A model generated the notes under the pieces. The model was given only the letters and a program-made list of their open reading frames with translations, ran no database searches and was not told the DNA's origin. A program made the translations under genes and the position numbers. From assembly GCA_016188785.1 (NCBI GenBank), contig JACPHD010000017.1:1-57715 (forward strand): 57,715 nt of DNA, given 5' to 3'. Position 1 is the first letter of the stretch. Every line of letters starts with the position of its first letter. Origin of the DNA: Parcubacteria group bacterium (GTDB lineage: Bacteria; Patescibacteriota; Patescibacteriia; Patescibacteriales; GWC2-42-12). Of this stretch, positions 728-47,318 are shown piece after piece.

Positions 728-1195
728 ATGCGAGGAAAACCAGTCTCCAAAAGAAAAATCGCGTCGGACGCCAGATATAATGACGCAGACATTGCCAAGT
801 TCATCAATTACATAATGGAACGGGGTAAAAAGACCGTGGCGCAAAAAATTGTCTATGGCTGTTTTGATATTATTAAAGAAGTTTCCAAGCAGGACCCGCG
901 GCATGTTTTTAATAAAGCCTTAAAGCAGGTCAGTCCTTTACTGGAAATTCGTGGCCGCCGTATCGGCGGCGCCAATTATCAGATTCCGTTTCAAGTCAGG
1001 GGCGAACGGCGTTTTAATTTAGGTTGCCGCTGGATTATCAACGCGGCCCGGGTGCGGAAAGGCAAGCCTATGGCGGAAAAATTAGCGGCCGAAATTCTGG
1101 ACGCGGCCAAAGGCGAGGGCGCGGCCGTGAAAAAGCGGGCTGAAGTGCACCGCATGGCCGAAGCCAATAAGGCGTTTGCTTATTTTGCTAGATAA
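728..1195 (+). CDS. rpsG: 30S ribosomal protein S7
   Basis: RRIGGANYQIP and HRMAEANKAFA motifs; follows rpsL. Confidence 0.99.
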   Translation: MRGKPVSKRKIASDARYNDADIAKFINYIMERGKKTVAQKIVYGCFDIIKEVSKQDPRHVFNKALKQVSPLLEIRGRRIGGANYQIPFQVRGERRFNLGCRWIINAARVRKGKPMAEKLAAEILDAAKGEGAAVKKRAEVHRMAEANKAFAYFAR

Positions 1196-1676
1196 TACGA
1201 ATTACGAATTTAGTACGAATTTACGAATAATTTTAATATGCAAGGAGGTGAAGATAAGATTGTTTATAGAGAACAGAGTTATATTGTAATAGGAATAGTT
1301 TTTGAGGTATTTAATAATTTAGGATTTGGCTATCAAGAGAAAATTTATCAAAAAGCGTTGGAAGCGGCGTTTGCTAAAGCTGGTATAGCATTTAAAGCCC
1401 AAAGTCCTTATGCAGTTTGTTATAAAGGTAATATTGTTGGTAGATATTTTGTTGATTTTATAATTGATAATAAAATTGTCATAGAAATTAAGCAAGGCAA
1501 TCATTTTTCAAAAAAATATTTTAATCAAGTTAATTCATATTTAAAAGTGACCAAGTTAAAATTGGCGATTTTAATTAATTTTACTTCTAAGGGTATAAAA
1601 TTCAAAAGGCTGGTAAATATAATCTAAAGACAGTAATTCAGTATTCGTAAATTCGTAAAAGATTCGTAATTAGTAT
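1195..1676 (+). mobile_element. inverted-repeat-flanked GxxExxY cassette
   Basis: 35-bp arms at 1195-1229 and 1642-1676 (31/35 complementary) enclose one nuclease-like gene between rpsG and fusA. Confidence 0.7.
1238..1627 (+). CDS. GxxExxY protein (PD-(D/E)XK nuclease-like)
   Basis: LGFGYQEKIY matches GxxExxY; VDFIIDNKIVIEIK catalytic-like D..ExK; QVNSYLK and ILINF C-terminal motifs. Confidence 0.93.
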   Translation: MQGGEDKIVYREQSYIVIGIVFEVFNNLGFGYQEKIYQKALEAAFAKAGIAFKAQSPYAVCYKGNIVGRYFVDFIIDNKIVIEIKQGNHFSKKYFNQVNSYLKVTKLKLAILINFTSKGIKFKRLVNII

Positions 1677-1682
1677 CATTTT

Positions 1683-3761
1683 ATGAGAGAATATAGTTTA
1701 GAAAAGACACGTAACATCGGCATTATCGCCCATATTGACGCGGGGAAAACTACGGTTTCCGAGCGGATTCTTTTTTATACCGGTAAAAAGCATAAAATCG
1801 GCGAAGTGCACGAAGGCGCGGCTGAAATGGACTGGATGGAACAGGAACGGGAACGCGGCATTACTATAACCAGCGCGGCCACGACTTGCTTTTGGAAGGA
1901 CTGCCGCATTAACCTGATTGATACGCCCGGACATGTTGACTTTACGGCCGAAGTGGAACGTTCGCTAAGGGTGCTGGACGGCGGCGTGGTGGTGTTTGAC
2001 GGCGTGGCCGGCGTTGAGCCGCAATCAGAAACCGTCTGGCATCAGGCGGATAAATACAACGTGCCCCGTATCGCTTTTATCAATAAAATGGATCGGACCG
2101 GCGCGAATTTTTACGCTGATTTAGATTCAATTTATAAAAGACTGACTAAACAGGCTCAGCCGATTCAATTGCCCATCGGCGCTGAAGATCAGTTTAAGGG
2201 TATTATTGATTTGTTTGAAAGAAAGGCGCGTTTTTTTCTGGACGAACTGGGCACTAAATGGGAAGATCGCGAGATTCCGGACGATCTAAAAGCCAAGGCT
2301 GAAGAATACCGGGCTAAATTAGTTGAAGCCATCGCCGATAATGATGAAACTTTAATGAATAAATATCTGGCCGGCGAGAATATTGAACTGGCTGATCTAA
2401 AAAGAGTTTTGCGCCAAGCCGTTAATAATAATAAAATTGTGCCGGTGCTTTGCGGCAGCGCTTTAAAAAATAAAGGCGTGCAATCTTTATTAGACGCGGT
2501 AGTTGATTACTTGCCCTCGCCCTTGGACAAGCCGGTTATTACCGGCTTTGATCCTGACGATAAAGAAAAAGTCATAGAAGTTAAGCCGTCTGACACTGAA
2601 CCGTTCGCGGCTTTAGCTTTTAAAATCGCCACCGACCCATACGTGGGTAAGCTGTGTTTTATTAGAGTCTACGGCGGAGTTTTACAATCAGGCTCTTATG
2701 TTTTAAATACCACTACCGGCAATCGGGAAAGAATTGGCCGCATCGTCAGGATGCACGCCAATCATCGCGAAGAAGTCCAGGAGGTGTATGCCGGAGAAAT
2801 CGCGGCTGTTATTGGCTTAAAAGGCACGACCACGGGCAATACTTTGTGCGATGAAAACCGGCCGGTGGTTTTAGAATCAATCATTTTTCCGGAAACGGTT
2901 ATTTCCATCGCCATTGAACCAAAGACTAAAGCCGATCAGGAAAAAATGGGTTTGGCTTTAGCCAAATTAGCCGAAGAAGATCCGACTTTCAGGGTTCGAA
3001 GCGATCAAGAAACCATGCAGACGATTATCGCCGGTATGGGCGAGCTTCATTTAGACATTATCGTTGACCGCATGAAGCGCGAATTTAAAGTTGAAGCTAA
3101 TGTCGGCAAGCCGCAGGTGGCTTACCGCGAAACCATTAAACAGGCGGCCGAAGCCGAGGGAAAATATATTAAACAATCGGGCGGTCGTGGCCAGTACGGC
3201 CATTGCTGGTTAAGAGTGGAGCCCAATGAGGCCGGTCAAGGTTTTGAATTTTTAGATGAAGTTAAAGGCGGAACGATTCCGCGCGAATACATACCGGCCG
3301 TTGAGAAAGGCGTTAAAGAAGCTTTGGACAAGGGCATTTTAGCCGGCTACCCCATAGTTGACATTAAAGTGGCCGTGCTGGACGGCTCTTACCATGAAGT
3401 TGATTCTTCGGAAGCGGCTTTTAAAATCGCTGGTTCCATAGCTTTTAAACAAGCCTGCCGCAAGGCCGAGCCGGTTATTTTAGAACCGATTATGAAAGTT
3501 GAAGCCGTGACACCGGAAGAATTTATGGGCGAAGTGATCGGCGACCTTAATGCCAAAAGAGCGCAAATTGAAGAAATGGGCGATCGCGCCAATATTAAGT
3601 TTATCAAAGCTAAAGTTCCGTTGGCCGCCATGTTCGGTTATGCCACGCAACTGCGGTCAATGACCCAGGGCCGGGCCAGCTACAGTATGGAATTCGCTTA
3701 TTATGCCGAAGTGCCCAGGCACGTGGCCGAAGAGATTGTTGGAGGAAAAGAAAAAAAGTAA
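1683..3761 (+). CDS. fusA: elongation factor G
   Basis: [21 protein letters not shown] motifs; 692 aa. Confidence 0.99.
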
Positions 3762-3948
3762 ATAATACGAATTACGAATTTATTACGAATTTACGAATTC
3801 TGAAAAAAACATTTTGTTCATTATTCGTAAATTCGTACAGGATTCGTAATTTGTATTATTGTTTGACTTTTTGTTCAGGAGAAAATATAATATAAATATC
3901 AGCAATAATGAATTATTCGTAAATTCGTAATAAATTCGTAATTCGTAT
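3761..3948. repeat. empty TACGAAT inverted repeat plus an extra right arm
   Basis: left arm 3765-3798; right arms 3822-3856 (imperfect) and 3915-3948 (exact complement); same family as the GxxExxY flanks. Confidence 0.9.
3863..3891 (+). promoter_or_regulatory. sigma70 promoter
   Basis: TTGACT, 17 bp, TATAAT. Confidence 0.75.
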
Positions 3949-3952
3949 TCAT

Positions 3953-4357
3953 ATGCAGGATCAATTGCAAAAAGCCATTAACTTAGCCAAAAAAACCGGC
4001 GACAAATTGATTGTTTTTGACAGCGCCAAGCCGGACAATGTGTTTGTTGTTTTGTCTTTAAAAGACTATGAAAATTTGGTTTTAGGCAAGAGCGAAGTAA
4101 GAGGCTTGACAGAAGACGGCTTACTTGATAAAATAAATCGCGATATAGCTATCTGGAAAAGCGATCAGGCGGAAGAGGAAAATATCAGCGCCATTCCTGA
4201 TTATTTTAGGGAATTGCCGGTCAAAGAAGAAGAAGACTCTGAAAAAATCATGATGGCCAGAGCCGGTAAAAGCTGGTCAATTCCTTCAAGAAGAAAGATA
4301 AATGCCGAAGAAATCATTGAAGAAGACCGCCAGTATTTGGAAGAATTGGCGTTTTAA
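3953..4357 (+). CDS. acidic hypothetical protein upstream of tuf
   Basis: 134-aa ORF with its own promoter; contains LTEDGLLDKINRDIAIW. Confidence 0.8.
   Translation: MQDQLQKAINLAKKTGDKLIVFDSAKPDNVFVVLSLKDYENLVLGKSEVRGLTEDGLLDKINRDIAIWKSDQAEEENISAIPDYFRELPVKEEEDSEKIMMARAGKSWSIPSRRKINAEEIIEEDRQYLEELAF
4106..4134 (+). promoter_or_regulatory. intragenic near-consensus sigma70 promoter
   Basis: TTGACA (4106-4111), 17 bp, TAAAAT (4129-4134), with extended -10 TG. Confidence 0.65.
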
Positions 4358-4408
4358 TAAAAAGGGATACGAATTTACTAATAATTTTTAATTTTATTTT
4401 TTAATTTT

Positions 4409-5053: not shown

Positions 5054-5446
5054 ATGGGGATTGATTTTAAAAATTTAATAAAATACTGGAAAGAATTGTC
5101 GGAATATGATTTTGAGACAGCAAAATTTATGTTTAAGACCAAGCGATATCCTTATTGCTTGTTTATGTGCCATTTATCAATTGAAAAATTGTTAAAAGCG
5201 CTAATCGTGAAATTAAAGAAACGGCACGCGCCTTATTCGCACAACCTCGTTAATTTAGCCAAAGAAACCGGATTAAATTTTAAAGAAGAAGATAAAATGC
5301 TATTAGCTGATTTAACGGAATTTAATTTAGAAGCCAGGTATCCTGAATGGCAGAAAGAATTTTACAAAAAGTGTTCAAAGATTTATACAGAAAATTATTT
5401 TAATGAAACTAAAAAATTACATCAATGGCTAAAAAAACATCTTTAG
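5054..5446 (+). CDS. HEPN domain protein
   Basis: YDFETAK...CLFMCHLSIEKLLKAL...HNL...ARYP pattern; overlaps the MNT gene. Confidence 0.88.
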   Translation: MGIDFKNLIKYWKELSEYDFETAKFMFKTKRYPYCLFMCHLSIEKLLKALIVKLKKRHAPYSHNLVNLAKETGLNFKEEDKMLLADLTEFNLEARYPEWQKEFYKKCSKIYTENYFNETKKLHQWLKKHL

Positions 5447-5763
5447 AACATATAGAGAGTACAGTTAAAGAATATGCAAATCTTTTAAGGGCTGACGGCA
5501 TTGATATTAAAAAAATTTTATTATACGGTTCTTATGCCAAAAGAAAGCAAAAAAAAGACAGCGATATTGATAGTTGCATTATTTCAGATAGATTCGGCAA
5601 GAATCCAACGGAAGAAGGAAAATATTTTTTTAGAAAATTATGGTTAATGAAAAATGCGAATATTGAACCAATCGGTTATTCTCCCAATTATTTTTATAAT
5701 GAAAATAATTGGTCGCCGCTTATAGATGAAATTAAAAAAACTGGCATAGAATTAAAAGTATAA
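5425..5763 (+). CDS. minimal nucleotidyltransferase (MNT)
   Basis: LYGSYAK...DSDID (GS-x10-DxD) motif. Confidence 0.88.
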   Translation: MAKKTSLEHIESTVKEYANLLRADGIDIKKILLYGSYAKRKQKKDSDIDSCIISDRFGKNPTEEGKYFFRKLWLMKNANIEPIGYSPNYFYNENNWSPLIDEIKKTGIELKV

Positions 5764-10758: not shown

Positions 10759-10768
10759 AATTTTTTAT

Positions 10769-10875
10769 GTTATTGCGAGCGACTGTCTTTTTTTGTCATT
10801 CCGGCCTTGAGCCGGAATCCAGAGTTCAGCGCTCTGGACAAGTTTCTGGATTGCGGGTCAAGCCCGCAATGACAA
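10769..10875. repeat. REP-like GTCATTCC...GCAATGAC element with a remnant of the GTCATTGCGAG family
   Basis: TTGTCATTCCGGCCTTGAGCCGGAATCCAG ... CTGGATTGCGGGTCAAGCCCGCAATGACAA. Confidence 0.9.
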
Positions 10876-10891
10876 TATAATATTATAAATT

Positions 10892-11338: not shown

Positions 11339-11419
11339 ACAATTAACAATTGAAAATTACGAATTACGATTAAATTATTTTAAAATTTGTAATTGATAAT
11401 TGATAATTCGTAATTGATT
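11339..11419. repeat. heptamer hairpin
   Basis: CAATTAA/GAATTAC arm vs. AATTGAT/AATTCGT arm. Confidence 0.8.
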
Positions 11420-11423
11420 AAAT

Positions 11424-12225
11424 ATGGGAATAAAAAAAGTAAAACCAACCTCACCAGGCAGAAGATCGGCCACTTTTGATGATTTTTCCGATATCACTAA
11501 AACCGAACCGGAAAAGAGTTTGATCGTCATAAGAAAAGGCCAGGCCGGTAGAAATAACCAAGGCAAGATCACGGTAAGGCATCAGGGCGGCGGCGTCAAA
11601 AGATATATTCGCCAGCTAGATTTTAAGCGGGATAAATTTGATATACCGGGTAAAATTATGTCGATTGAATATGATCCTAACCGCGGCGCCCGCATTGGTT
11701 TGGTAAATTATAAAGACGGGGCAAAAAGGTATATTATCATGCCCATAGGCCTTAAGGTTGGCGATGAAATATTAAGTTCAAAAAATCAAATTGAAATAAA
11801 AACCGGCAATGCCATGCCGATTAAGTTTATTTTACCCGGCATCGGCGTTAATAGCCTAGAATTAGAACCGGGCAGAGGCGCTAAAATCGCCCGTGGCGCC
11901 GGCAATTTGGTTTTTGTTATGGGCGCTTTAGGCAATTACGCGCAAATTAAGCTGCCTTCAGGAGAAATTAGATTAGTCCATAAAGAGTGCCTCTGCACGG
12001 TCGGCCAGGTTAGCAACCCGGACCGCCGGCATATTACCATCGGCCGAGCCGGACGGCAGAGATTATTAGGATCCGGTTGATCATCCGCATGGCGGCGGCG
12101 AAGGTAAACAGTCTATCGGTTTAAAGCAGCCAAAAACTAAATGGGGTAAGCCGGCTTTAGGCGTTAAAACCAGAAAAAATAAAAAAAGATCAAATAGATT
12201 AATTATTCAAAGAAGAAAAAAATAA
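11424..12225 (+). CDS. rplB: 50S ribosomal protein L2, frameshifted by an apparent ~30-nt deletion near 12070
   Basis: IEYDPNR motif in the first frame; the C-terminus [11 protein letters not shown]...RRKK* continues in another frame at 12073-12225. Confidence 0.95.
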
Positions 12226-12229
12226 ATAA

Positions 12230-12307
12230 ATCAATTATCAATTTGCAATTACGAATTACGAATTTGTTGAATTAAATTTGTAATTGATAATTGGTAATTC
12301 GTAATTT
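12230..12307. repeat. heptamer hairpin
   Basis: TCAATTATCAATTTGCAATTACGAATT ... AATTTGTAATTGATAATTGGTAATTCGTAATT. Confidence 0.8.
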
Positions 12308-12315
12308 AATCTTAT

Positions 12316-12634: not shown

Positions 12635-12755
12635 ATACGAATTACGAATTTGTTACAAATTTACAAATAAAATGCAATTTAATGCGAATGATGTGAATAC
12701 CGCGATAATACGAATTATAATATTCGTAAATTCGTAAAGGATTCGTAATTCGTAT
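12635..12755. repeat. empty TACGAAT inverted repeat (GxxExxY-flank family)
   Basis: ATACGAATTACGAATTTGTTACAAATTTACAAATA ... TATTCGTAAATTCGTAAAGGATTCGTAATTCGTAT. Confidence 0.9.
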
Positions 12756-16379: not shown

Positions 16380-16565
16380 ATGGCTAGAACAGCTTTAATC
16401 GTAAAATCAAAAAAGAAACCAAAGTATTCCACTAGAATCGTCAGGCGCTGTTGGCGTTGCGGCCGCAATCACGGCTTTATGAGAGATTTTGGTCTTTGCC
16501 GCATTTGTTTTAGGGAACTAGCGTCTAACACTGACATACCGGGAGTGACTAAATCAAGCTGGTAA
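16380..16565 (+). CDS. rpsN: 30S ribosomal protein S14, Zn-binding type
   Basis: RCWRCGR...LCRICFRE; 61 aa. Confidence 0.98.
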   Translation: MARTALIVKSKKKPKYSTRIVRRCWRCGRNHGFMRDFGLCRICFRELASNTDIPGVTKSSW

Positions 16566-16646
16566 TCAATTATCAATTAACAATTACGAATTAATAAAAT
16601 GCCAAATGAATAAAATTCGTAATTGATAATTCGTAATTGTAAATTA
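16565..16646. repeat. heptamer hairpin
   Basis: CAATTATCAATTAACAATTACGAATT ... AATTCGTAATTGATAATTCGTAATTG. Confidence 0.85.
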
Positions 16647-17065: not shown

Positions 17066-17145
17066 TCAATTTACAATTATCAATTACGAATTACGAATTA
17101 AACAAAAATAAAATTTGTAATTGATAATTCGTAATTGTAAATTGA
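17066..17145. repeat. heptamer hairpin
   Basis: TCAATTTACAATTATCAATTACGAATT ... GTAATTGATAATTCGTAATTGTAAATTGA. Confidence 0.85.
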
Positions 17146-18296: not shown

Positions 18297-18938
18297 ATGG
18301 ATGAAGAAAAAAAACAGCCAGAAATAGCGGTTAGTCAGGCGGCGCCGGTTCAAACCGCGCCTGAATCTAGAATGGCTCAGCGCGGCGGCGACAGAAAAAG
18401 AAATTTTAAAGGTAAAAGAGGGTCGCCGCGCTCGGGTTATGGCATGCCGGAGGAATTTGAGCAAAAAATGATTGATATTGCCCGCGTTACCCGCGTTATG
18501 GCCGGCGGCAAAAGAATGCGCTTTAGAGCCTGCGTGGCTATCGGCAATAAGAAAGGCCGGGTGGCGATCGGTTTGGCTAAAGGCGCCGACGTTACTTTAG
18601 CCGTGACTAAAGCCGTTAATAAAGCTAAAAAGAATTTCATTGACATACCGATTGTCAATGAAACCATTCCCCACGAAGTTTATCAAAAATTAGGCGCGGC
18701 CAGAATTTTATTCAGGCCGGCTAAAAAGGGCCGGGGCATTATCGCCGGCGGCGCGGTTAGAATTCTTTTGGAATTAAGCGGCATAAAAAATGTTACCAGT
18801 AAAATATTAGGCACCGGCAATAAAGTCAACAATGTAAAGTGCGCCATTGCAGCGCTGAAGAGTTTGAAAAGAGTGGAAATAAATAAAAAATCCCAAATCC
18901 CAAATCCCAAAGCCCAAACAAATTCAAAATCCGAATAA
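18297..18938 (+). CDS. rpsE: 30S ribosomal protein S5
   Basis: RVTRVMAGGKRMRF, GIIAGG; C-terminus encoded by AAATCCC heptamers. Confidence 0.98.
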   Translation: MDEEKKQPEIAVSQAAPVQTAPESRMAQRGGDRKRNFKGKRGSPRSGYGMPEEFEQKMIDIARVTRVMAGGKRMRFRACVAIGNKKGRVAIGLAKGADVTLAVTKAVNKAKKNFIDIPIVNETIPHEVYQKLGAARILFRPAKKGRGIIAGGAVRILLELSGIKNVTSKILGTGNKVNNVKCAIAALKSLKRVEINKKSQIPNPKAQTNSKSE

Positions 18939-18995
18939 CCAAAATACAAAATTTATTTGTGATTTGGAAATTGTAATTTGGAAATTAATAAACTT

Positions 18996-19446: not shown

Positions 19447-19605
19447 TGTCATTGCGAGCGACTGTCTTGCTTCGTCATTCCTGCAGCCTTTAGTCCTCGC
19501 GAAAGCGGGGAAGGAATCCAGAAAAACCACGTTGGTCAATATCCCCATCGTCCTGGATTCCCGCCTGCGCGGGAATGACGAAAGAAAATTGCTCCTCGCA
19601 ATGAC
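19447..19605. repeat. nested REP-like elements
   Basis: outer GTCATTGCGAG...CTCGCAATGAC encloses TTCGTCATTCC...GGAATGACGAA (19471-19582). Confidence 0.9.
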
Positions 19606-19614
19606 TGATAAATT

Positions 19615-24105: not shown

Positions 24106-24188
24106 TGAACCCCGTTAGAAATTCGTTAAATTAAAGCGAGGTTTATAATAAAATAATATATGACAAATCAAATTTCTAACGGGGTGAA
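24106..24188. mobile_element. CCCCG...CGGGG element in a start codon, TGAA duplication
   Basis: A-TGAA|CCCCGTTAGAAATT...AATTTCTAACGGGG|TGAA; 75-bp core. Confidence 0.82.
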
Positions 24189-43265: not shown

Positions 43266-43270
43266 CCCTC

Positions 43271-43344
43271 AAATCTACAAATTTGCTACGAATAATACAA
43301 ATATAAATAATAATTTGTAATATTTGTAACTGATTTGTAGATTT
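43271..43344. repeat. TACAAAT/TACGAAT-type inverted repeat
   Basis: AAATCTACAAAT ... ATTTGTAGATTT terminal pairing with periodic internal units. Confidence 0.75.
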
Positions 43345-43359
43345 GTGGGGAAAATTATT

Positions 43360-44350: not shown

Positions 44351-46525
<2,175 letters not shown>

Positions 46526-46526
46526 C

Positions 46527-46591
46527 CGTCATTAAATAATTTCTGGATTCCTTCCCCGCTTTCGCGAGGACTAAAGGCCGCAGGAATGACG
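46527..46591. repeat. REP-like element
   Basis: 46540-46591 is the reverse complement of 19473-19524 with one mismatch. Confidence 0.88.
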
Positions 46592-46599
46592 AGGAGTAT

Positions 46600-46893
46600 A
46601 TGCAATTATCCAAGAACGAAATACAACATATTGCCAAACTGGCCAGGCTGGAACTTACGGATGTTGAGCTGGAAAAATACGGCGCGCAACTATCCGCGGT
46701 TTTAAATTATATTGACCAGCTTAAGGAAGTTGAGGTTCAAGGCGTGGAACCGACCGCGCAAGTTACCGGGCTGGAAAATGTTTTACGCGAAGATGTGGTA
46801 AGGGGTTGGGACAAGGCCGAAATTGAGGAAGCTTTGAATGGCGCGCCGGAACGGGAAGGCCGATTTATTAAAGTGAAGCGGGTAATAGAATAA
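46600..46893 (+). CDS. gatC: Asp/Glu-tRNA amidotransferase subunit C
   Basis: HIAKLARL, VLREDV, FIKVKRV. Confidence 0.96.
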   Translation: MQLSKNEIQHIAKLARLELTDVELEKYGAQLSAVLNYIDQLKEVEVQGVEPTAQVTGLENVLREDVVRGWDKAEIEEALNGAPEREGRFIKVKRVIE

Positions 46894-46902
46894 AAATATT
46901 TA

Positions 46903-46977
46903 CCCCGTTAGAAATTCATCAAACTAAAACGGGGCGTATAATAAAATATATTATGGCAAATCAAATTTCTAACGGGG
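46903..46977. mobile_element. CCCCG...CGGGG element supplying a start codon
   Basis: 75-bp core homologous to 24110-24184; flanks TTTA / TGAA are not an exact duplication. Confidence 0.8.
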
Positions 46978-47318
46978 TGAAGATAATCAATCAAGAAATT
47001 ACCATTAACGAATTGAAAATTATGGCTGAAAAAATGTTCGGTAATTTAGTCAAAGCCGTGGTTGATATTGAACGCGGTATAATGGCGGTTGACGCTGAAT
47101 TGCACGCTGATGAAGAAGCAGGTTTAATTAAAAACGGTTCGGAGCAGAAAGATTTGTGGGGAATTAATTTGTACCCGGCACTTAAGACCGATGATTTTAT
47201 TGAATTTGATTCAATGATCAATTTAAGGCCGCGGCAAGGCAACTTGACGCGCGGCGTGGAAGATGAAAAAATTCAGGAGAAAATCAGGCTGATAGTGAAT
47301 AAGTTAATAAAAAAATAA
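46953..47318 (+). CDS. DUF5674-like protein
   Basis: LVKAVVDI, ELHADEE, DLWGINLYP, FDSMINLRP. Confidence 0.78.
   Translation: MANQISNGVKIINQEITINELKIMAEKMFGNLVKAVVDIERGIMAVDAELHADEEAGLIKNGSEQKDLWGINLYPALKTDDFIEFDSMINLRPRQGNLTRGVEDEKIQEKIRLIVNKLIKK

Follow-up and report, generated by a model that had tools for sequence, protein, structure and literature searches.

A predicted nuclease gene in the loop of a long inverted repeat between rpsG and fusA: a candidate mobile hairpin cassette with gene-less copies in a Patescibacteria genome

Why should a small predicted nuclease gene lie in the loop of an inverted repeat between rpsG and fusA? The question was raised by contig C33, a stretch of 57,715 nt called the window below, in a Parcubacteria genome (G000) of 1.007 Mb, 45 contigs and 41% GC. 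The host genes on the two sides, rpsG (728-1195, + strand) and fusA (1683-3761, +), were named from their sequence. The left arm of the repeat (1195-1229, +), here termed A-type, consists of four TAC(G/A)AAT words and starts at the last base of the rpsG stop codon. It is followed by a GxxExxY gene (1238-1627, +) encoding 129 aa, the sole ORF between rpsG and fusA in the ORF list of the window, and by the right arm (1642-1676, -), which ends 6 nt before the fusA ATG. Word-array arm, nuclease gene and inverted arm make up 482 bp. An earlier note on this DNA had claimed that the arms are complementary, that the left one overlaps the rpsG stop and that a single GxxExxY gene separates rpsG from fusA. 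All three claims hold: 31 of 35 positions pair, one base is common to the arm and the TAA, and the protein matches TIGR04256 with 115 bits (cut-off 35) and PF13366 with 108.8 bits (cut-off 22) over the whole model. Searched with a degenerate arm pattern, the window gave exactly 7 arms and 100 shuffles gave none. In the RNA fold the stem closes at 1190-1681, so the fusA ATG lies just outside it; the fold z score is -3.4 for the full cassette compared with -10.4 and -4.2 for the gene-less hairpins at 3765-3856 and 12635-12755. Rfam returned only a tRNA over the window and no family covering the arms, and among the joints listed for the contigs of four runs none skipped the cassette, contigs being apt to drop rare variants. 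Further along, between fusA and tuf, the window encodes a HEPN plus nucleotidyltransferase (MntA-like) toxin-antitoxin pair (5054-5763).

The PD-(D/E)XK-type fold that had been proposed for the protein was borne out by its PF13366 (PDDEXK_3) assignment and by a Cas4-like structure model (pLDDT 91.7), and all atlas matches to it were PDDEXK_3. Residues E34, D73, E83, K85, Q97 and Y101 are intact. Across 102 sequences, D73, K85 and Y101 are invariant, E34, E83 and Q97 are kept at 90% or more, and the invariant columns hold no cysteines; purifying selection on an intact active site is evident in the aligned sequences. The best fold match was Cas4 SSO0001 (4ic1; Z 8.3, rmsd 3.6, 100 residues aligned). 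Restriction enzymes scored no more than 1 Z unit away, and Z 8.3 itself is near the level common for the PD-(D/E)XK fold. Foldseek ranked Cas4 first (E 7e-5) and lambda exonuclease next (E 3.5e-4). The modeled fold thus appears closest to Cas4 and lambda exonuclease; a common fold would show no function, and function should not be transferred from the Cas4-like model. We take the E..D..ExK..QxxxY arrangement to be the QxxxY motif, a hallmark of RecB/Cas4-type enzymes whose substrates are single strands or ends. The structural matches and this arrangement liken the protein to Cas4, lambda exonuclease and RecB-type enzymes, from which it differs in being a minimal domain of 129 aa and in having neither a CRISPR nor a recombination context. 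A reading as a cruciform resolvase was disfavored, the Hjc resolvase appearing only at rank 19 of the fold list (Z 6.4). A PDB sequence search returned only T7 endonuclease I (E 0.018), PADLOC gave no match at E 0.1, and a homodimer prediction scored 0.00, which yields no answer. The portions of the literature available to us give PDDEXK_3 as of 'Unknown' function with multiple transfers (PMC3424549), describe a GxxExxY domain beside a reverse transcriptase (10.1101/2021.01.26.428298) and use the term 'GxxExxY' at least once more (PMC12085832).

The same arms recur without the gene. Gene-less pairs are present, as the earlier note had it, at 3765-3856 (+; 24-nt loop, directly after the fusA stop) and at 12635-12755 (+; rpsS/rplV junction, 53-nt loop with TGCGAAT-like words), as is a lone right-type arm at 3914-3948 (-), which lies between a promoter-like site (3863-3891) and an ATG at 3953; G044 has an arm at the equivalent place. 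The fragment proposed near 4367-4385 (+) exists as a weak half-arm remnant beyond the stop codon that ends the ORF 3953-4357, but the arm pattern does not match it at 3 mismatches. A supposed variant of these arms at 43271-43344 had to be reassigned: the gene-less hairpin at 43266-43349 (+) matches, with 4 and 2 mismatches in 37, the different (B-type) arms of a second GxxExxY gene (G000:C42:36351-36824) and therefore belongs to a sister family. Genome-wide we found 42 A-type arm matches in 21 clusters, most of which fill the whole gap from a few bases after a stop to a few bases before an ATG, and 21 arms matching the B-type, each single-copy GxxExxY gene having its own repeat group. Five four-helix-bundle (TIGR02436) genes likewise carry their own heptamer arms, and 16 arms, several of them in the window, match those of the one between dnaK and dnaJ. 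The genome thus contains several gene-plus-empties families.

Other repeats were recorded alongside. Gene-less heptamer hairpins at 653-720, 11340-11420, 12219-12310, 16565-16646 and 17067-17145 of the window have arms matching those around the four-helix-bundle gene at G000:C36:25569-25931, and four of these junctions carry that family in G044 too. A further heptamer hairpin, at the rpsE-rplO junction (18884-18990), runs in frame into the end of rpsE and adds a repetitive tail to it. Inverted repeats of the CCCCGTTAGAAATT type (24107-24186, 46901-46980 and 47320) enclose start codons and give rise to 'QISNGVK' protein starts; one of them precedes a DUF5674 gene (46953-47318). GC-rich GTCATT-type palindromes that by eye match the published NTS-like motif occupy operon gaps at 10766-10876, 19447-19610, 25991, 41786 and 46540. 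A non-heptamer repeat of ~110 nt (for example L084:1260-1375) is found 30-60 times per genome, with 85-96% identity, in four congeners; it also occurs at the congeners' rpsL-rpsG and rplW-rplB junctions and at G000:C42:41837-41952.

The loops indicate how the empty hairpins arose. When 14 paired A-type empties were compared, those at C21:7166, C28:44476 and C26:9583 proved to have a common loop of 47-48 nt (scores 40, 30 and 30 against a shuffle maximum of 16, the first two aligning with a score of 40 of 48), and those at C29:1936 and C42:41400 an identical loop of 23 nt. Their flanking genes are unrelated, and identity stops at the arm ends. The same loops at unrelated junctions mean that the empties were copied as units, and this is the best evidence for non-autonomous spread. 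Eight congeners have almost none of these arms (0 in seven, 1 in one, compared with 42 here). Arms are nonetheless present here at 8 of 35 mappable arm sites (40 fetched) from five other genomes, whereas 44 of 2146 gene ends carry them. Some empties may therefore be old and vertically inherited, or some sites hit repeatedly. No clear target duplication was seen at the empty rpsG-fusA allele or at the C21 and C28 boundaries, where the ends are AT-rich and a TA duplication would be indistinguishable from a repeat ending in TA. Four close comparisons sought as filled/empty pairs for target duplication turned out to be a remnant, a swapped cassette, other elements and a replaced protein loop. Among 901 genes screened for inverted repeats on their flanks, none with these arms was recognized as a DDE transposase element. 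Compensatory pairing at the variable arm position gave no consistent signal (18 of 50 matched in the genome, 50 of 74 in relatives). CpG decay as the source of the G/A variation of the arms was dropped because all four bases occur at that position elsewhere, as was the rule of an arm start at a stop-like triplet, in-frame copies included, which seven loci fit and three further loci do not.

The whole cassette, gene included, is also found in another genus. The premise that rpsG and fusA are normally adjacent is true in general, but in this family the spacer ranges from 3 to ~1250 nt across 24 relatives and often contains unrelated genes. The empty-site allele that the earlier note had suggested looking for was found, as a bare TAA-TTT-ATG, in 2 of the 24. 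Only G134, of a different genus, has the cassette at this junction; the other 23 lack it, among them G126, whose fusA is 96% identical to that of G134, and the remaining junctions are occupied by other hairpins or unrelated genes. The G000 and G134 cassettes start at the same base. Their genes are 88% identical at the nucleotide level (dS 0.43, dN 0.07, dN/dS near 0.16), with one internal stop in the G134 copy, while the flanks are synonymously saturated (pS 0.87 in rpsG and 0.76 in the 5' part of fusA) and identity ends 6 nt to the left and 16 nt to the right of the cassette. Four-fold sites of the two genes differ at 8 of 27 positions, compared with 0.63-0.88 for nine other AT-rich GxxExxY genes, so that AT-richness does not explain the 88% identity; the corresponding values are 0.71 for the G134 host genes and 0.35-0.57 for the congeners of G000. 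We infer that the cassette moved laterally, from whichever donor and in whichever direction, without homologous flanks, because such similar cassettes stand at one base between saturated flanks. A search through 316 genomes of the order brought up G134 as the sole close match to the cassette gene, the nearest relatives of which are Patescibacteria records. A contig from another study covers 1208-1750, that is, the cassette and the start of fusA, at ~90% (55 differences in 542 nt).

Whether GxxExxY genes generally carry such arms was assessed across the family. The TIGR04256 profile matched in 65 of 151 genomes of the order, and 145 loci spanning CPR, Bacteroidota, Planctomycetota and archaea were examined. 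Flanking inverted repeats exceeded the shuffle maximum at 121 of the 141 loci that had both flanks and were neither duplicate nor weak, so the prediction of the earlier note was upheld. Arms across the family have a common (A/G)C-N-(A/G)A word, the context of which varies by protein clade in a quick tree that omits 7 of the 145 rows (duplicate, truncated, weak or tandem). The expected tie between arm sequence and gene was also found. A same-genome paralogue was present for 64 of 88 order-level loci. At 57 of the 64 the arms were more similar to those of the nearest protein in another host family than to those of the paralogue (median cosine 0.33 compared with 0.05), and none of 500 Mantel permutations reached the observed arm/protein association. 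The covariation indicates one inherited unit, not recognition, as co-inheritance alone would be expected to yield it. Two tandem two-domain GxxExxY proteins of ~260 aa (L026, L029) have no flanking inverted repeats.

The sites occupied are varied, with 208 loci mapping to 30 junctions that are syntenic in G000, several of which are bare spacers of 1-9 nt there. Whole cassettes also lie in frame, with the arms translated, inside host proteins (7 loci of 145 in one set, 5 of 80 in another), namely RecG, LeuRS and LepA (Pfam) and presumably GatB and AsnB; RecG is uninterrupted in three relatives. The gene and its arms constitute one mobile unit, and cassettes survive mainly in stop-to-start gaps or in in-frame loops. 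Ten GxxExxY cassettes from several host families (L084, L087, L090, L091, L094, L104, L112, L115, L119 and L135) occupy one junction orthologous to window 46525-46600, where G000 has a GC-rich palindrome in place of a cassette.

Taken as a whole, the 482-bp stretch is, in our judgment with slightly better than even probability, a selfish mobile hairpin cassette whose empties are likely mobilized by its own Cas4-like nuclease acting on the arms; for the nuclease as mobilizer of the hairpins taken separately, the sequence comparisons leave us close to evenly divided. The protein would bind the repeated (A/G)C-N-(A/G)A words and would cut the hairpin in single-stranded or extruded DNA; inserting a copy might then fall to host repair, at AT-rich sites that are short and with hardly any target duplication or none. 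The stem in the mRNA may bring the upstream stop near the downstream ATG, a proximity that would make insertions cheap in a genome hardly using Shine-Dalgarno sites. On this view the cassette would have crossed between genera, entering one and the same rpsG-fusA junction, and gene-less copies would have spread within the genome, with later decay through an internal stop, gene loss or loss of one arm and replacement by other hairpin families. To our knowledge QxxxY-type enzymes mostly trim DNA ends, and we know of none with joining activity; the insertion step is therefore without a model, which counts against this explanation.

If the nuclease mobilizes the empties, gene and arms might be expected to occur together. 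GxxExxY matches were found in 33 of 42 arm-bearing genomes compared with 32 of 109 arm-less ones, and in 18 of 20 genomes with five or more arms, in a set of incomplete genomes in which kin are not independent. G146 (14 arms) and G026 (5 arms) are arm-rich with no GxxExxY match in their incomplete assemblies, and several arm-rich genomes have only other GxxExxY clades among the loci fetched. The four-helix-bundle genes served as a control: 28 of 30 loci have inverted repeats of their own on the flanks, and the genes presumably encode the S23p protein family. The A-arm count correlates with the GxxExxY count and with the four-helix-bundle count alike (rho 0.52 for each, partial rank correlation 0.30 for each), so that a permissive-genome effect accounts for part of the co-occurrence. 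The association of gene presence with arm number, which the earlier note had proposed to check, thus stands as a difference in frequency, but the four-helix-bundle count predicts arms equally well. The proposal of an autonomous/non-autonomous pair is supported in so far as gene and arms travel together and empties were copied between unrelated junctions, and is weakened by the four-helix-bundle parallel and by the arm-rich genomes that have no GxxExxY match. A secreted-looking protein of 592 aa (L197:1460-3235) bears at its start an in-frame fusion to a four-helix-bundle domain with arms.

Because of this parallel, the main rival is that one shared factor, be it host recombination or repair or an unrelated enzyme, moves all the hairpin families, with the GxxExxY and four-helix-bundle genes as mere cargo in the loop; we consider it possible but rather unlikely. 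It would account for the same architecture around a four-helix-bundle protein with no known catalysis, for the one site at which a four-helix-bundle cassette in G126 replaces the GxxExxY cassette of G134 and G155 between flanks that are 98% and 95% identical, and for the heptamer arms that in G044 surround an unrelated DUF4116 ORF at rpsG-fusA. Candidate factors are also encoded, the genome having a reverse transcriptase, a weak Y1-transposase match and an RNase III gene. Cargo, however, would need some other reason for the invariant catalytic residues and the dN/dS near 0.16, and the GxxExxY arms are of one word type across phyla, distinct from the four-helix-bundle heptamers. Among 66 genomes with at least four four-helix-bundle genes, moreover, GxxExxY occurs in 21 of 23 with at least three arms compared with 25 of 43 without (p 0.005, kin not being independent). 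The reverse transcriptase (PF00078, G000:C29:22404-23851) is accompanied by an Avd-like ORF of 119 aa in antisense and by an ORF of 173 aa upstream, and we assume that it is part of an ordinary diversity-generating retroelement with the Avd-like gene; a LAGLIDADG-like ORF lies at C29:19840.

A free-standing homing endonuclease would cut the empty junction and let recombination copy the cassette across, the stem being a device for tolerance and the empties the remnants of dead cassettes. The site fidelity of close relatives is what such an enzyme would produce: cross-family pairs occupy the same site in 5 of 5 cases above 80% protein identity, 10 of 28 at 70-80% and 24 of 84 at 60-70%, falling to 36 of 338 and 3 of 418 in the next bands and 15 of 2617 under 40%. 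Decay is seen as well, in the internal stop of the G134 gene and in another site where G126 has a lone arm and G134 a full cassette, and in L316 an unrelated GxxExxY cassette (44% identity) has also settled at rpsG-fusA. Against this, co-conversion of flanks is absent from the one pair in which it can be judged, the G000 and G134 carriers having in common only 6 and 16 nt, and a 75%-identical relative (L300) sits at another junction. One-loop empties at unrelated junctions are not expected of homing either, and of 29 further junctions with full cassettes in other genomes just 2 have such arms here, near the baseline of 78 of 2146. The empties were accordingly rejected as remnants at known full-cassette sites. 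As to the folds of known homing families, Cas4 and restriction-type enzymes head the lists of matches. We regard homing as improbable.

Alternatively, the hairpins might be control elements kept by the host, acting in translation initiation or coupling, in mRNA processing or as an Ssn-like filter on incoming DNA, with the nuclease a domesticated partner. The arms do adjoin start codons, SD-like words precede only 52 of 688 genes, and G.U exceeds A.C in the mRNA orientation (36 compared with 20, p 0.044). The accessible parts of two papers add that TAACTGA repeats before start codons were read as translational regulators (PMC4679880) and that SsnA modulates transformation (PMC11893778). The G.U excess, however, is weak and explicable by strand-biased mutation, and the orientation of the A-type clusters is not biased beyond background (17 of 20 with both neighbors called lie between co-directional genes, compared with 395 of 533 gaps of at least 60 nt). 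The operon works in congeners that have no A-type arm or one, and close relatives have different hairpin families or nothing at one and the same junction; we give this explanation a low probability. The related suggestion that the stem loops the gene out of the mRNA agrees with the start-codon geometry, for in 60 of 93 cassettes an ATG lies no more than 15 nt beyond the right arm, compared with 24 of 93 control positions. It does not hold generally, because in-frame cassettes are open and read through their arms and relatives hold hairpin-free genes at rpsG-fusA, so that looping out is at most a tolerance effect.

An assembly artefact or a chance AT-rich repeat has next to no probability, for although the assembly is fragmented and the window apparently contains a collapse in rplB, no shuffle matched the arm pattern, single contigs of two public runs, possibly the source samples, span the cassette (200-1858 and 488-1856) with 1 and 0 differences, and the existence of independent cassette carriers already refutes it. 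The split in rplB lies at 12060-12080, where the window has 2 letters and relatives' contigs have 34; the contigs of run X2 break there, and an assembly collapse is probable.

The preferred reading, a mobile cassette with its own nuclease, can be set against known systems, which are compared here from the available portions of the cited papers. REPIN/RAYT pairs (PMC3337134) resemble it in their single-copy small gene with its own repeat group, in the several gene/repeat pairs per genome and in gene-less inverted doublets with variable spacers in intergenic gaps, which here form the 21 clusters copied within the genome. They differ in the enzyme, which is HUH/Y1 there and a PDDEXK_3 protein with invariant D-ExK residues here, and in the repeats, which are short palindromes there and here arrays of 7-8-nt direct TAC(G/A)AAT-type words that pair between arms, with the gene in the loop of one long stem (PMC3337134). 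RAYTs are moreover described as single-copy and unable to transpose (PMC3337134), whereas this gene moves between genera, to many different junctions and into coding frames. The analogy to RAYT/REPIN with a different nuclease, drawn in the earlier note, is therefore apt for the repeat group and the gene-less doublets but fails for the gene, which itself moves between hosts. Ssn/NTS (PMC11893778) is similar in having a single-domain nuclease gene between its own hairpin repeats, which are also scattered over the genome, and in its co-evolving nuclease/motif pairs, and its authors compare Ssn with a mobile element. Ssn is a GIY-YIG nuclease of demonstrated activity with a GC-rich 28-nt hairpin; the GxxExxY protein is a nuclease predicted from sequence and fold, with AT-rich word arrays and long-range pairing (PMC11893778).

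Intervening sequences with an ORF in rRNA genes (Coxiella S23p, PMC4990558; CPR rRNA insertions, PMC11270868) also place an ORF in the loop of a long terminal stem and are selfish, horizontally acquired and decaying. They are excised and lie in rRNA, while the present cassettes occupy mRNA junctions between protein genes or protein loops, encode a nuclease and have many gene-less copies (PMC4990558, PMC11270868). Bacterial MITEs and in-frame palindromic elements (PMC3184786, PMC4853749) have in common with the cassette its terminal inverted repeats around a core and, with the gene-less hairpins, long stems that are cotranscribed and sometimes fused in frame; a MITE derived from a PD-(D/E)XK_2 (YhgA) element has been proposed (PMC4853749). 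The differences are that no clear target duplication or DDE partner was seen here, that the partner is PDDEXK_3 and that a whole gene, not the repeat alone, is inserted in frame (PMC3184786, PMC4853749). By analogy, the best reading would be a REPIN/RAYT-like or Ssn/NTS-like mode of working in a system that is a member of neither. A literature search, largely without subscription journals, found no account of GxxExxY genes with inverted repeats; the cassette is real and mobile and, it appears, undescribed in print.

More tentatively, and with the balance against it, GxxExxY proteins as a family could be the mobilizing enzymes of an undescribed class of transposable elements, one in which a minimal Cas4-like nuclease would read arrays of a short word, carry its own hairpin-framed gene from genus to genus to the same base without flanking homology, land between stop and start or in frame inside essential proteins, and mobilize its empties in trans. 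The four-helix-bundle cassettes would then be a parallel class with other, hidden chemistry that competes for the same slots. If true, a widespread family listed as 'Unknown' would gain a job, and many of the hairpins in the operon gaps of these small genomes would be accounted for. An enzyme of 129 aa that recognizes clade-specific words and promotes insertion would open a new way of moving DNA that needs no DDE, HUH or recombinase domain; the family would offer a natural library of small sequence- or structure-specific nucleases.
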